Notes: generated by a model from the sequence alone, not told the origin. A DNA stretch of 4,665 bases from a virus (IMGVR_UViG_2711768073_000007), one strand, 5' to 3'. Positions 1 to 4,665 are shown, numbered from the stretch's first letter. Translations and numbers: made by a program.

Positions 1-141
1 CAACGCCACGGGGCCAGCAAAAAAGCCATTACCCGTGCGTTTGATGACGATGTTGAGTTTCAGGAGCGCATGGCAGAACACATCCGGTACATGGTTGAAA
101 CCATTGCTCACCACCAGGTTGATATTGATTCAGAGGTATAA
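1..141 (+). CDS. gam: Gam host-nuclease (RecBCD) inhibitor, C-terminal 46 codons; 5' end lies outside the window
   Basis: In-frame translation from position 1 gives [46 protein letters not shown] followed by TAA at 139-141, which matches the C-terminus of lambda Gam as I recall it. It sits 5 nt upstream of bet, as in lambda. Confidence 0.9.
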
Positions 142-146
142 AACGG

Positions 147-932
147 ATGAGTACAGCACTCGCAACGCTGGCAGGGAAGCTGGCTGAACGTGTCGGCATG
201 GATTCTGTCGACCCACAGGAACTGATCACCACTCTTCGCCAGACGGCATTTAAAGGTGATGCCAGCGATGCGCAGTTCATCGCATTGTTGATCGTCGCCA
301 ACCAGTACGGCCTTAATCCGTGGACGAAAGAAATTTACGCCTTCCCTGATAAGCAGAACGGCATCGTTCCGGTGGTGGGCGTTGATGGCTGGTCCCGCAT
401 CATCAATGAAAACCAGCAGTTTGATGGCATGGACTTTGAGCAGGACAATGAATCCTGTACATGCCGGATTTACCGCAAGGACCGTAATCATCCGATCTGC
501 GTTACCGAATGGATGGATGAATGCCGCCGCGAACCATTCAAAACTCGCGAAGGCAGGGAAATCACGGGGCCGTGGCAGTCGCATCCCAAACGGATGTTAC
601 GGCATAAAGCCATGATTCAGTGTGCCCGTCTGGCCTTCGGATTTGCTGGTATCTATGACAAGGATGAAGCCGAGCGCATTGTCGAAAATACTGCATACAC
701 TGCAGAACGTCAGCCAGAACGCGACATCACTCCGGTTAACGATGAAACCATGCAGGAGATTAACACTCTGCTGATAGCCCTGGATAAAACATGGGATGAC
801 GACTTATTGCCGCTCTGTTCCCAGATATTTCGCCGCGACATTCGCGCATCGTCAGAACTGACACAGGCCGAAGCAGTGAAAGCTCTTGGATTCCTGAAAC
901 AGAAAGCCACTGAGCAGAAGGTGGCAGCATGA
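147..932 (+). CDS. bet: Red-beta single-strand annealing protein (Bet), 261 aa
   Basis: The 261-aa product ([38 protein letters not shown]...) is recognisable as lambda Bet and has the same length. The 5-nt gam-bet gap and the ATGA overlap with exo (929-932) are also as in lambda. Confidence 0.96.
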
Positions 933-1609
933 CACCGGACATTATCCTGCAGCGTACCGGGATCGACGTGAGAGCTGTCGAACAGGGGGATGATGCATGG
1001 CACAAATTACGGCTCGGCGTCATCACCGCTTCAGAAGTTCACAACGTGATAGCAAAGCCCCGATCAGGAAAGAAGTGGCCTGACATGAAAATGTCCTACT
1101 TCCACACCCTGCTGGCTGAGGTTTGCACCGGTGTGGCTCCGGAAGTTAACGCTAAAGCGCTGGCCTGGGGAAAACAGTACGAGAACGACGCCAGAACCCT
1201 GTTTGAGTTCACTTCCGGCGTAAATGTTATTGAATCCCCGATCATCTATCGCGACGAAAGTATGCGCACCGCCTGCTCTCCCGATGGTTTATGCAGTGAC
1301 GGCAATGGCCTTGAGCTGAAATGCCCGTTTACCTCCCGGGATTTCATGAAATTCCGGCTCGGTGGTTTCGAGGCCATAAAGTCGGCTTACATGGCCCAGG
1401 TGCAGTACAGCATGTGGGTGACGCGAAAAGATGCCTGGTACTTTGCCAACTATGACCCGCGTATGAAGCGTGAAGGCCTGCATTATGTCGTGATTGAGCG
1501 GAATGAAAAGTATATAGCGAGTTTTGACGAGATGGTGCCGGAGTTCATCGAAAAAATGGACGAGGCACTGGCTGAAATTGGTTTTGTATTTGGGGAGCAA
1601 TGGCGATGA
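929..1609 (+). CDS. exo: Lambda-type 5'-3' exonuclease (Red-alpha, Exo), 226 aa
   Basis: The 226-aa product ([40 protein letters not shown]...) is recognisable as lambda exonuclease and has the same length. Its start overlaps the bet stop (ATGA). Confidence 0.96.
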
Positions 1610-1788
1610 AACATCCTCACGATAATATCCGCGTAGGCACGATCACTTTCGTCTACTCCGTTACGAAGCGAGGCTGGGTATTTCCCGGCCTTTCTGTTAT
1701 CCGAAATCCCCTGAAAGCACAGCGGCTGGCTGAGGAGATAAATAATAAACGGGGAGCTGTATGCACAAAGCATCTCCCGTTGAGTTAA
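1606..1788 (+). CDS. Small conserved lambdoid protein of unknown function, orf60a-like, 60 aa (alternative start ATG 1600)
   Basis: The ATG at 1606 overlaps the exo TGA stop (ATGA at 1606-1609), giving a 60-aa product [24 protein letters not shown].... The length and 4-nt overlap match the lambda orf60a annotation as I recall it; the six-frame track starts it 6 nt earlier at 1600. Confidence 0.7.
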
Positions 1789-1952
1789 GAACGAGTATCG
1801 AGATGGCACATAGCCTCGCTCAAATTGGAGTCAGGTTTGTGCCAATACCAGTAGAAACAGACGAAGAATTTCATACGTTAGCCGCATCCCTTTCACAAAA
1901 GCTGGAAATGATGGTGGCGAAAGCAGAAGCAGATGAGAGAGACCAGGTATGA
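1761..1952 (+). CDS. Small conserved lambdoid protein of unknown function, orf63-like, 63 aa
   Basis: A 63-aa ORF ([37 protein letters not shown]...) overlaps the previous ORF by 28 nt, the same length and overlap as lambda orf63 relative to orf60a. The product is acidic and predicted soluble. Confidence 0.7.
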   Translation: MHKASPVELRTSIEMAHSLAQIGVRFVPIPVETDEEFHTLAASLSQKLEMMVAKAEADERDQV

Positions 1953-2244
1953 CAACCACGGAATGCATTTTTCTGGCAGCGGGCTTCATATTCTGTGTGC
2001 TTATGCTTGCCGACATGGGACTTGTTCAATGACACCTCAGCAAGAAAACGCCCTTCGCAGCATTGCCCGTCAGGCTAATTCTGAAATCAAAAAAGCCAGA
2101 CAGCAGTTTCCGGATAAAAACGTCGATGACATTTGCCGTAGCGTACTGAAGAAGCACCGCGAAACGGTAACGCTGATGGGATTCACACCGACTCATTTAA
2201 GCCTGGCGATCGGCATGTTAAACGGCGTCTTTAAGGAACGGTGA
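1933..2244 (+). CDS. Hypothetical protein in the lambda orf61 position, 103 aa as drawn; the real product may instead be the 71-aa protein from ATG 2029
   Basis: The ATG at 1933 overlaps orf63 by 20 nt, as lambda orf61 does by the recalled coordinates, but here the frame stays open for 103 codons. An internal ATG at 2029 (MTPQQENALRSIARQ...) is translationally coupled to an upstream small ORF, so the start is uncertain. Confidence 0.5.
   Translation: MRETRYDNHGMHFSGSGLHILCAYACRHGTCSMTPQQENALRSIARQANSEIKKARQQFPDKNVDDICRSVLKKHRETVTLMGFTPTHLSLAIGMLNGVFKER
1949..2032 (+). CDS. Candidate 27-aa hydrophobic micropeptide (MTTTECIFLAAGFIFCVLMLADMGLVQ), alternative frame within the orf61-position ORF
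   Basis: Its ATG overlaps the orf63 stop (ATGA at 1949-1952) and its TGA stop overlaps the ATG at 2029 (ATGA at 2029-2032). The product has one continuous hydrophobic stretch of about 20 residues, consistent with a single transmembrane helix. There is no independent SD, so coupling would be required. Confidence 0.25.
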   Translation: MTTTECIFLAAGFIFCVLMLADMGLVQ

Positions 2245-2264
2245 ACATGAAAAGCAAAATCATC

Positions 2265-2290
2265 AGGGAGCTACAGGCTCCTTTTTTATT
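2265..2290 (+). terminator. Putative rho-independent terminator or attenuator inside the pL-type operon
   Basis: GGAGC (2267-2271), loop TACAG, GCTCC (2277-2281), followed directly by TTTTTTATT (2282-2290). The stem can extend to about 7 bp with A-U and G-U pairs. It lies in the gap between the orf61-position ORF and the TraR-like gene. Confidence 0.4.
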
Positions 2291-2342
2291 GTTCGCATTC
2301 ATCCTCAAGCGTATTAACCAACAATTCAGGGATTAATGGAAG

Positions 2343-2561
2343 ATGGCAGACATCATTGATTCGGCATCAGAAATCGAAGAATTACAGCGCAATACAGCAA
2401 TAAAAATGCGTCGTCTGAACTACCAGACTGTATCCGCAACTCATTGTTGTGAGTGTGGCGATCCGATAGATGAGCGAAGACGCCTGGCTGTTCAGGGTTG
2501 TCGGACTTGTGCAAGTTGCCAGGAGGAGATCGAACTTAAGAACAAACAATGGGGACTGTGA
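2343..2561 (+). CDS. TraR/DksA-family C4 zinc-finger protein, 72 aa (phage-encoded probable RNA polymerase secondary-channel binder)
   Basis: The product contains CCECGDPIDERRRLAVQGCRTCASC, i.e. CxxC-(17)-CxxC with the G-PI-E-RR signature, closely resembling the zinc-finger region of F-plasmid TraR. The size is typical of TraR-like proteins. Confidence 0.8.
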   Translation: MADIIDSASEIEELQRNTAIKMRRLNYQTVSATHCCECGDPIDERRRLAVQGCRTCASCQEEIELKNKQWGL

Positions 2562-2608
2562 TGGCCTCAAAGCAGCAAATTTCAACATCGTCCAACTGAG
2601 GTGTAAAA

Positions 2609-2887
2609 ATGTTCAGAATCATTTTTCCTAACACCTGGTACGTCGACCACCACGGCACTCCCTGCAAAATCCTGCGTTCTACCCACAACAAAGTTCACTA
2701 CATCCGAAAAGGCAGAACATGTATCGCCAGCATGTTCCGCTTTAATCATGACTTTGAACCTGTGAATAAAGCTGATGCAGATCGGATAGCAGAAGAGATC
2801 GAAACGGCAGAACACATTAAGAAGTTACGTGACATGCGTTCAAAAAGCAGAGGTAACCATGGAATCATACAGCCTCACACTCGATGA
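2609..2887 (+). CDS. Hypothetical protein, 92 aa, function unknown
   Basis: Good SD (GAGGTG, 2598-2603) 5 nt before ATG 2609, co-oriented with the operon. The 3' end overlaps the xis start by 29 nt. I recognise no motif; basic N-terminal half, acidic central segment. Confidence 0.55.
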   Translation: MFRIIFPNTWYVDHHGTPCKILRSTHNKVHYIRKGRTCIASMFRFNHDFEPVNKADADRIAEEIETAEHIKKLRDMRSKSRGNHGIIQPHTR

Positions 2888-3230
2888 GGCCTGTCAGTTT
2901 CTTAAGATATCCAGACCAACCGCCACCAACTGGATACGAACAGGCCGCCTACAGGCAACACGTAAAGATCCAACCAAGCCAAAATCTCCTTACCTCACAA
3001 CACGGCAAGCCTGCATTGCGGCGCTTCAGTCTCCGCTGCATACTGTCCAGGTGAGCGCGGGTGATGGCATAACAGAGGAAAGAAAATGTCACTCTTCCGC
3101 AGAAATGAAATATGGTATGCCTCGTATTCGCTCCCGGGCGGGAAACGAATTAAGGAATCTCTTGGCACAAAGGACAAGCGGCAAGCTCAGGAGTTGCACG
3201 ACAAGCGAAAAGCAGAACTCTGGCGAGTAG
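2859..3230 (+). CDS. xis: Excisionase-like DNA-binding protein (Xis / recombination directionality factor candidate), 123 aa from ATG 2859 (track gives GTG 2829)
   Basis: SD AGAGG before ATG 2859. The N-terminal about 55 aa ([32 protein letters not shown]...) look like a phage excisionase/AlpA-type helix-turn-helix, and the gene sits immediately upstream of the integrase. The frame runs 145 nt into int in a different frame, so the true C-terminus is uncertain. Confidence 0.6.
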
Positions 3231-4249
3231 AAAAGCTAGGGGATTTACCTGATGTCACTTTTGAAGAGGCCTGCCTAAGATGGCTTGAGGAAAAAGCTGA
3301 TAAAAAATCTCTCGATTCAGATAAAAGCCGGATTGAGTTCTGGCTTGAACATTTTGAGGGTATAAGGCTTAAAGATATCTCGGAGGCAAAGATTTACTCT
3401 GCTGTAAGCAGAATGCATAACAGAAAGACGAAAGAAATATGGAAACAGAAAGTTCAGGCCGCCATCAGGAAAGGTAAAGAACCGCCTGTTTATGAACCAA
3501 AGCCAGTATCAACTCAGACAAAGGCAAAGCATCTTGCCATGATAAAGGCCATTCTCCGTGCTGCAGAACGCGACTGGAAGTGGCTGGAAAAAGCGCCTGT
3601 CATCAAGATACCAGCGGTCAGAAACAAGCGAGTCAGATGGCTGGAAAAGGAGGAAGCAAAACGCCTTATTGATGAGTGCCCCGAACCACTGAAATCTGTC
3701 GTCAAGTTTGCGCTGGCAACTGGTCTGAGAAAGTCGAACATCATAAATCTGGAATGGCAACAAATCGACATGCAGCGACGAGTTGCCTGGGTGAATCCAG
3801 AAGAGAGCAAATCAAACCGCGCCATTGGTGTGGCGCTGAACGATACCGCCTGTAAAGTGTTGCGTGATCAAATAGGCAAGCATCACAAATGGGTGTTTGT
3901 ACATACCAAGGCGGCTAAGCGAGCAGATGGAACATCAACGCCTGCGGTCAGGAAGATGCGCATCGACAGCAAGACATCATGGCTATCAGCTTGTCGTCGT
4001 GCAGGAATTGAAGATTTCCGTTTCCATGACCTCAGACACACCTGGGCAAGCTGGCTGATTCAGTCAGGCGTCCCATTATCAGTGCTTCAGGAAATGGGCG
4101 GATGGGAGTCCATAGAAATGGTTCGTAGGTATGCTCACCTTGCGCCTAATCATTTGACAGAGCATGCGAGGAAAATAGACGACATTTTTGGTGATAATGT
4201 CCCAAATATGTCCCACTCTGGAATTATGGAGGATATAAAGAAGGCGTAA
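3086..4249 (+). CDS. int: Tyrosine site-specific integrase, 387 aa, DLP12 IntD-like, argU-targeting type
   Basis: N-terminus [33 protein letters not shown] is typical of the arm-binding domain of P4/DLP12-family integrases. The C-terminus carries the catalytic signature: [14 protein letters not shown], and VRRYAHL with the catalytic Tyr codon at 4130-4132. The stop lies 15 nt from the tRNA 3' end. Confidence 0.95.
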
Positions 4250-4264
4250 CTGATTGAATTGTAA

Positions 4265-4341
4265 TGGCGCGCCCTGCAGGATTCGAACCTGCGGCCCACG
4301 ACTTAGAAGGTCGTTGCTCTATCCAACTGAGCTAAGGGCGC
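4265..4341 (-). tRNA. argU: tRNA-Arg (anticodon UCU), 77 nt with encoded CCA
   Basis: The reverse complement of 4265-4341 folds as a cloverleaf: acceptor GCGCCCT/AGGGCGC, D-arm GCTC-AGTTGGATA-GAGC, anticodon arm ACGAC-CTTCTAA-GTCGT (anticodon TCT), T-arm GCAGG-TTCGAAT-CCTGC, discriminator G and CCA. It matches E. coli argU as I recall it. Confidence 0.95.
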
Positions 4342-4583: not shown

Positions 4584-4665
4584 ATGAAACTGGATTTGCC
4601 CCTATATTTCCAGACACCTGTTATCACTTACCCCATCACTGGCCCACTGCCGCAGATATTCCCGT
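4584..4665 (+). CDS. Possible 5' end of a host ORF running off the window (MKLDLPLYFQTPVITYPITGPLPQIFP...); in-frame ATGs also at 4521 and 4569
   Basis: An open frame runs from 4521 to the window edge with no stop. No convincing SD and no recognisable motif, so this could be non-coding intergenic sequence. Confidence 0.2.
   Translation, partial: MKLDLPLYFQTPVITYPITGPLPQIFP

Follow-up and report, generated by a model that had tools for sequence, protein, structure and literature searches.

The window analyzed here, a 4,665-nucleotide stretch of viral DNA (IMGVR_UViG_2711768073_000007), is the end of a lambdoid prophage's left arm, in which all genes lie on the plus strand (Table 1). Genes of the bet, exo, orf60a, orf63 and orf61 types precede a short gene for a zinc-ribbon protein, the subject of this report, and blastn aligned window positions 1-2538 colinearly with lambda 32956-30418 at 97.0% identity, from bet into that gene. 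The initial annotation had assigned the gene to an early operon, and these neighbors, colinear with the lambda pL region, bear this out: it belongs to the prophage's leftward early (pL) operon. Complete E. coli genomes show an S24 peptidase gene (repressor-like), kil and gam on the upstream side, oriented the same way, and fimZ downstream; at least 80% of the window was found in one place in 659 of 5,426 such genomes. Over window positions 1-4316 the sequence matches the record of Escherichia phage PhiR68_2 at 100% identity and phages ev243 and 2G7b at about 99%, and the phage genome records stop inside the tRNA-Arg(TCT) gene, at about window position 4316. This tRNA was the sole match to Rfam across the whole window at gathering thresholds, with no other structured RNA found.

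Table 1. Features of the window (positions counted from its first nucleotide)
Feature	Position	Strand	Basis
bet, RecT family	147-932	+	Pfam; 97% nucleotide identity to lambda
exo, YqaJ family	929-1609	+	Pfam; 97% nucleotide identity to lambda
orf60a-like, DUF1317	1600-1788	+	Pfam; lambda annotation
orf63-like, DUF1382	1761-1952	+	Pfam; lambda annotation
orf61-like, full-length	1933 or 2029 to 2244	+	PHROG 303
Terminator-like hairpin, 8 bp stem, 3 nt loop, then TTTTTTATT; about 50 nt upstream of the orf73-type gene	2265-2292	+	Pattern scan
Possible Shine-Dalgarno sequence AGGGA, 10 nt 5' of the ATG (inferred, weak)	2328-2332	+	Read from sequence
orf73-type gene, TraR-family zinc-ribbon protein, 72 aa	2343-2561, stop codon included	+	ORF list; PF01258; lambda Orf73 identity; RefSeq
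D3-I-I-D6-S-A8 (DxxDxA) motif, codons 3-8, tip of N-terminal helix	2349-2366	+	Read from sequence
C4 zinc ribbon CxxC-17-CxxC, codons 35-59 (C35, C38, C56, C59; extra C36, C53)	2445-2519	+	Read from sequence; alignment to TraR
R46-R47, codons 46-47, counterparts of R48 (contacts rim helices) and R49 (contacts beta'Si3) in TraR	2478-2483	+	Alignment to TraR
C-terminal helix, codons 57-70, with conserved E64 (TraR E66)	2511-2552	+	AlphaFold2 helix
End of lambda nucleotide homology, mosaic junction in the last ~8 codons of the gene	2538		blastn; identity 0.48 in bin 2501-2600
DUF4222 gene	2609-2887	+	Pfam
Excisionase	2859-3230	+	PHROG 2907, E=5.9e-46
Tyrosine integrase, intD-type	3086-4249	+	Pfam; RefSeq
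tRNA-Arg(TCT), prophage integration site	4265-4341	-	ARAGORN; Rfam

Several neighboring loci differ from existing records. The orf61-type gene is here one continuous ORF of 103 amino acids, or 71 from the ATG at 2029; reference lambda carries an extra A in a poly-A run (window 2083-2088; indel at 2088) that cuts Orf61 to 61 amino acids, and the truncation of lambda Orf61 relative to its Stx-phage homologs has already been noted (PMC8614690). A hydrophobic ORF of 26 codons, MTTTECIFLAAGFIFCVLMLADMGLVQ (1951-2031, plus strand), situated after orf63 and before the internal orf61 start, matches PHROG 26061 (E=1.2e-17). It may encode a small membrane peptide and could be related to the extra small ORFs detected by ribosome profiling of lambda. 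A second small ORF, MNMKSKIIRELQAPFLLFAFILKRINQQFRD, with 31 codons and a GTG start, spans the hairpin between orf61 and the orf73-type gene (2241-2336, plus strand); it has no PHROG match, and ribosome profiling in the corresponding region of lambda found a 31-amino-acid peptide, orf2313 (PMC8614690). Downstream, the excisionase ORF has 123 codons, overlaps the integrase start (3086) by 145 nt and is covered by PHROG 2907 over residues 1-116. At this locus the PGAP annotation is limited to an 'incomplete' helix-turn-helix pseudogene of 22 codons, and a comparable xis overlapping int is annotated in phage SfI; the ORF is probably a real full-length Xis that is mis-annotated in RefSeq. The last ~79 bases of the window (4587-4665) are the terminal sequence of an IS3-family element, matching 2,420 plasmid records, and strain ETEC4091 carries the same ~79 bases at an IS3-family transposase gene inserted in fimH. 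Because the match to other E. coli genomes ends at 4590, and the fimZ coding sequence in them starts at about window position 4584, the element lies at the very start of fimZ in the source genome.

No sigma-70-like promoter was found on either strand between window positions 1500 and 3200, and a promoter belonging to the gene itself was rejected on this basis. Together with the operon context, this absence fits transcription from the distant pL. In lambda, the pL operon is read through by N antitermination. The terminator-like hairpin at 2265-2292 and its T run are identical in lambda, but as a significant regulatory element it is not compelling: its fold z-score is only -1.7, and the pattern scan found three terminator-like sites against 1.9 expected from shuffling. 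Another such hairpin, likewise not statistically compelling, lies inside orf60a (1670-1692, plus strand), at roughly the position of lambda terminator tL3, judging by the lambda fragment that plasmid pKD46 carries. A literature search on tL3 gave no paper that places it; the papers it brought up concerned recombineering and other constructs.

The ORF itself is uninterrupted from ATG to TGA over 72 codons, and its product is MADIIDSASEIEELQRNTAIKMRRLNYQTVSATHCCECGDPIDERRRLAVQGCRTCASCQEEIELKNKQWGL. The initial annotation had described a CxxC-(17)-CxxC zinc ribbon and a 'G-PI-E-RR' signature in this 72-amino-acid product, and a reading residue by residue recovered both: C35-x2-C38 and C56-x2-C59 are separated by 17 residues, and the string corresponds to G39, P41-I42, E44 and R46-R47. 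The same segment reads E44-R-R-R47-L48, the form (ExxRL) present in lambda. Beyond the four presumptive zinc ligands, which align with TraR C37, C40, C58 and C61, the product has two further cysteines, C36 and C53, the second of them in the pattern G-C53-x-x-C56-x-x-C59. The N-terminal D3-x-x-D6-x-A8, with the same residue numbers as in F TraR, had not been mentioned before. In TraR, R48 contacts the rim helices and R49 contacts beta'Si3, and the C-terminal helix contacts betaSi1 (PMC9239242). The candidate Shine-Dalgarno sequence AGGGA is conserved in lambda; a GGAAG adjoining the ATG is not conserved there. Three ORFs overlapping the gene (2382-2588 and 2353-2514 on the minus strand, 2470-2631 on the plus strand) had no Pfam or PHROG match at E<=0.1.

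Profile searches placed the product in the DksA/TraR family. Residues 33-64 matched Pfam PF01258 (zf-dskA_traR; E=2.8e-9) with 37.3 bits, above the gathering score of 24.9 bits, and residues 1-70 matched PHROG 54, 'DksA-like zinc-finger protein' (E=3.6e-26). Among PDB sequences searched with phmmer, the best match was E. coli YbiI (PDB 2KGO; E=1.2e-5), followed by F TraR (E=7.7e-5), which aligned over residues 1-69. YbiI resembles the product across the zinc ribbon, but it is longer (a 108-residue PDB chain) and matches only residues 31-67. The product missed the cut-off of NCBIfam TIGR02419 (C4_traR_proteo), scoring 53.9 against 59.7 bits, yet it matched the profile over its full length (1-64 of 64) with E=2e-14; the product thus falls slightly short in a curated score rather than missing a feature. 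All the other sequence and fold features tested for the TraR-type branch were present. We found 226 homologs in a collection of 5.8 billion proteins, and those with names are called 'TraR/DksA family transcriptional regulator'.

Residue conservation was counted in two sets: 98 full-length close homologs, and 118 representatives of 50%-identity clusters derived from an exhaustive HMMER search with 613 matches at E<=0.001 (Table 2). Among the representatives, 106 of 118 jointly keep an acidic residue (D or E) at positions 3 and 6 together with A8. Loss of the zinc-ribbon cysteines in homologs would have spoken against the zinc-finger assignment made at the outset; since all four ligand cysteines are kept together in 105 of the 118 representatives, no such loss is seen.

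Table 2. Conservation of residues of the product in two homolog sets
Residue	98 close homologs	118 cluster representatives
D3	92 D, 6 E	99 D, 12 E
D6	95	111
A8	95	110
C35	98	115
C38	96	115
R46	94	111
R47	96	108
C56	93	112
C59	90	107
E64	95	94

An AlphaFold2 model built with an alignment of 92 sequences (mean pLDDT 84.9) predicts a helix at residues 5-27, a ribbon at 33-56 (block-mean pLDDT 93-96) and a second helix at 57-70. When the model was compared with the PDB using Foldseek, the top match was TraR bound to RNA polymerase (RNAP; 6n57_M; E=9.4e-4, probability 1.00, TM 0.57, rmsd 4.9 A), and below it ranked YbiI, then TraR 5w1s, then DksA-RNAP complexes. The agreement of the predicted fold with TraR is moderate by TM score, and we liken it to the 4.0 A difference, in the relative angles of the helices, between a published model of lambda Orf73 in free form and RNAP-bound TraR (PMC8614690). 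Structure prediction and comparison with TraR and DksA, the check that had been proposed, thus put TraR first and the DksA chains lower. With PF01258 above its cut-off, the PHROG 54 match, the TraR alignment and the TraR-like predicted fold, the original TraR/DksA-like assignment is upheld, and by sequence, motifs and predicted fold the product is a TraR-type member of the family.

Comparison with the characterized members sharpens this placement. F TraR (PDB 5W1S, 6N57 and others) has 73 amino acids and shares with the product the three-element architecture, the D3/D6/A8 numbering, the CxxC-17-CxxC ribbon and the equivalents of its R48/R49 and E66, in addition to being the top fold match. Unlike the product, TraR has four cysteines rather than six and is encoded in the tra operon of a conjugative plasmid, and the two proteins are only about 30% identical. 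A 'DksA-like zinc-finger protein' of phage 186 is 42% identical to the product. E. coli DksA shares the PF01258 C4 zinc finger and binds the RNAP secondary-channel site proposed for the product, and the acidic residues at its tip are functionally analogous to D3 and D6. The product might accordingly be imagined to act as DksA does, as a weak RNAP binder requiring ppGpp as a cofactor, and membership in the same zinc-finger and secondary-channel family is what speaks for this. DksA, however, is about twice as long (140-142-residue PDB chains), carries its acidic residues on a coiled-coil tip and needs ppGpp for full activity, whereas the 72-residue product is predicted to have a single N-terminal helix and no coiled coil. 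In the fold search the DksA chains come after TraR, and their TM is only 0.28 when normalized to the 140-142-residue chains; both TraR and lambda Orf73 work without ppGpp and at lower concentrations than DksA (PMC9239242). On length and architecture, DksA proper and a DksA-type mechanism were rejected, and we consider that a ppGpp-dependent mode of action has virtually no chance of being correct.

The closest characterized relative is a lambda protein. The RefSeq record of lambda (NC_001416) has an unannotated gap between ea22 and orf61, and this gap holds a 73-codon ORF, read at 30395-30613 on the minus strand, which is Orf73 (also Orf2310) of the literature. In a gap-free alignment, 62 of 71 residues (87%) are identical between lambda Orf73 and the product. 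All six cysteines, DxxDxA, R46/R47, ExxRL and E64 are shared, and so is the position in the pL operon after orf60a-orf63-orf61. The nine replacements fall at residues 27, 29, 30, 49, 62, 63, 66, 67 and 70, none of them a hallmark position, and five of the nine lie in the C-terminal helix. At the extreme C terminus lambda has KQRGSK and the product KQWGL, a tail one residue shorter. Downstream, lambda continues with ea22-ea8.5-orf55-xis-int, whereas here the DUF4222 gene is followed by an argU-type xis/int module. Both the different tail and the different downstream gene can be attributed to the mosaic junction at ~2538. A conserved exo-xis block preceding orf73 has been described (PMC8614690), and ea22, the fifth gene of that block, is not downstream here, where the DUF4222 gene stands instead; this is a difference of context only. 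Other lambda-like phages, Lambda_4C10 and 4A7 among them, are ~97% identical to the window up to position 2838, so they have the DUF4222 neighbor in common with it. From identity, hallmarks and operon position, we infer that the prophage carries here its own allele of lambda orf73. Because the C-terminal replacements and the altered tail fall in the helix predicted to contact betaSi1, the potency or promoter range of the allele could differ from that of the lambda protein.

Nineteen codons differ from lambda orf73, ten of them synonymously, and the resulting Nei-Gojobori dN/dS of 0.19 points to purifying selection on the ORF. This bears on whether the gene is an unexpressed or decaying remnant in a defective prophage, with no current function. 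The terminator-like hairpin with its T run ~50 nt upstream, the weak candidate Shine-Dalgarno sequence and the end of the IS3-family element at the start of fimZ, a sign of local genome flux, would all be compatible with decay. The ORF is nevertheless intact as well as constrained; the prophage sequence to 4316 recurs, identical or 99% identical, in PhiR68_2, ev243 and 2G7b, and phage SfI encodes an identical protein. Transcription from pL is moreover antiterminated by N. In lambda itself, which has the same hairpin, ribosome profiling found orf73 highly expressed within 20 min of induction (PMC9239242). We therefore regard a functionless remnant as extremely unlikely.

The activity of the lambda ortholog has been worked out by Gopalkrishnan et al. 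(mBio 2022, PMC9239242). Purified lambda Orf73 competes with DksA for its site on RNAP. Like TraR, it is an inhibitor of rrnB P1 (IC50 about 50 nM), and it has no need of ppGpp; rpsT P2 is also inhibited without ppGpp. The D3N and D6N variants are defective or weakened in vitro, and D3A/D6A in lambda orf73 reduces phage yield. Induced Orf73 complements a dksA deletion on minimal medium, and expression of Orf73 from pL in vivo brings pre-rRNA and rpsT mRNA down to 29% and 45%, respectively, of their orf73-minus levels. Host growth is slowed, and phage yield after mitomycin C induction rises 3-4-fold (PMC9239242). Activation at thrABC, argI and rpoH P3 is weak if it occurs at all, and the lambda lytic promoters tested were unaffected (PMC9239242). 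F TraR, by comparison, activates amino-acid, rpoH P3 and F tra promoters, and P2 Orf82, another TraR homolog that inhibits rrnB P1, lacks A8 and has an IC50 that is five-fold higher (PMC9239242). Donaldson and colleagues modelled Orf73 on TraR in RNAP and listed four hallmarks: DxxDxA, the C4 finger, ExxRK (ExxRL in lambda) and, in the C-terminal helix, an acidic residue (PMC8614690).

These experiments divide what the initial annotation had proposed. A TraR-like action on RNAP, with inhibition of rRNA promoters, agrees with the behavior of lambda Orf73; the accompanying effect on amino-acid promoters does not, given the weak or absent activation of thrABC, argI and rpoH P3. Likewise, the expectation that the targets would be new information holds for this allele only, as rrnB P1 transcription, dksA-background phenotypes and modelling on TraR are all published for the lambda ortholog.

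Taking these observations together, the product of this orf73 allele is very probably a TraR-type factor, binding in the RNAP secondary channel and inhibiting rRNA and ribosomal-protein promoters. For the product, RNAP binding, promoter effects and the influence on phage yield are carried over from the experiments with lambda Orf73, 87% identical to it. Transcription of the gene would take place after prophage induction or infection, within the N-antiterminated pL early operon, in which it follows gam-bet-exo-orf60a-orf63-orf61. The 72-amino-acid protein would fold with its C4 zinc ribbon set between an N-terminal and a C-terminal helix. The first helix would enter the RNAP secondary channel and bring D3, D6 and A8 near the active site. 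Contacts with the rim helices and beta'Si3 would be made by R46 and R47 of the ribbon, and that with betaSi1 by the C-terminal helix. Acting without DNA binding and without ppGpp, the protein would shift the conformation of RNAP such that promoters with short-lived open complexes, those for rRNA and ribosomal proteins, are inhibited. Host growth would then slow, with resources passing to phage production.

The physiological outcome of Orf73 is disputed, while its biochemical activity is not. An earlier study, as cited in PMC9239242 and PMC8614690, reached the opposite result on yield, reporting that orf73 lowered lytic phage yield, and called the gene pro-lysogenic. It could thus be argued that the main job of the protein does not run through RNAP at all, and that it blocks initiation of host replication ('bin') or biases the choice between lysis and lysogeny via another partner, its TraR features being secondary. 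Earlier genetics, as cited in PMC9239242, implicated lambda orf73, along with three genes next to it, in the inhibition of host replication initiation, and deletion of orf73 reduced survival and lysogenization (PMC8614690). Lambda Orf73 also inhibits the dnaA promoters in vitro, though only at high concentration (IC50 ~420 nM for P2 and 1.7 uM for P1; PMC9239242). Replication and lysogeny phenotypes can, however, follow from effects on RNAP, through rRNA transcription, supercoiling or DnaA synthesis, and direct RNAP binding and promoter inhibition dependent on D3 and D6 have been demonstrated for lambda Orf73 (PMC9239242). All the RNAP-contact hallmarks are kept in the product, on an ORF under purifying selection, and the remaining members of the 'bin' cluster (ea22, ea8.5 and orf55) do not figure among the genes found downstream of orf73 in the window. 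A main function outside RNAP is in our estimation very unlikely, and action through the secondary channel is the reading we retain.

The two extra cysteines deserve separate comment. They have been treated as a feature of lambda Orf73, and the authors of that work suggest that they may explain its poor activation (PMC9239242). In our counts, C36 is rare, being found in 6 of 118 representatives. C53 (window 2499-2501; V55 in TraR) is no lambda peculiarity: 89 of the 98 close homologs have it, which makes it near-invariant in the Orf73 clade, and so do 62 of the 118 closest family representatives. These counts and the published remark on non-activation raise the idea that proteins bearing C53 form a functionally distinct branch of TraR-type factors, inhibition-only or sensitive to metal or redox state, and that the mosaic C-terminal helix of the present allele could shift the promoters that respond. 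We think this idea unlikely, as matters stand. Should the extra cysteines account for the missing activation, much of the family may be inhibition-only.

The assignment reached here is correct and already known, in the sense that a close ortholog has been characterized biochemically, genetically and by modelling; the prevalence of C53 is the one small point that goes beyond the papers considered here. At the gene's position, RefSeq lists WP_000763385.1, 'TraR/DksA family transcriptional regulator', with one such genome 100% identical across the gene, while the identical product of phage SfI is recorded as a 'hypothetical protein'. The gain for annotation is that the SfI and PhiR68_2 records could carry the label of an Orf73/TraR-family RNAP-binding regulator in place of 'hypothetical protein'. 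Beyond correct annotation the finding has little importance, and its residual value is comparative. Natural alleles of orf73 vary mainly in the C-terminal helix, the element that contacts betaSi1 in TraR, and these alleles, along with a widespread fifth cysteine, bear on why lambda Orf73 inhibits transcription yet barely activates it.
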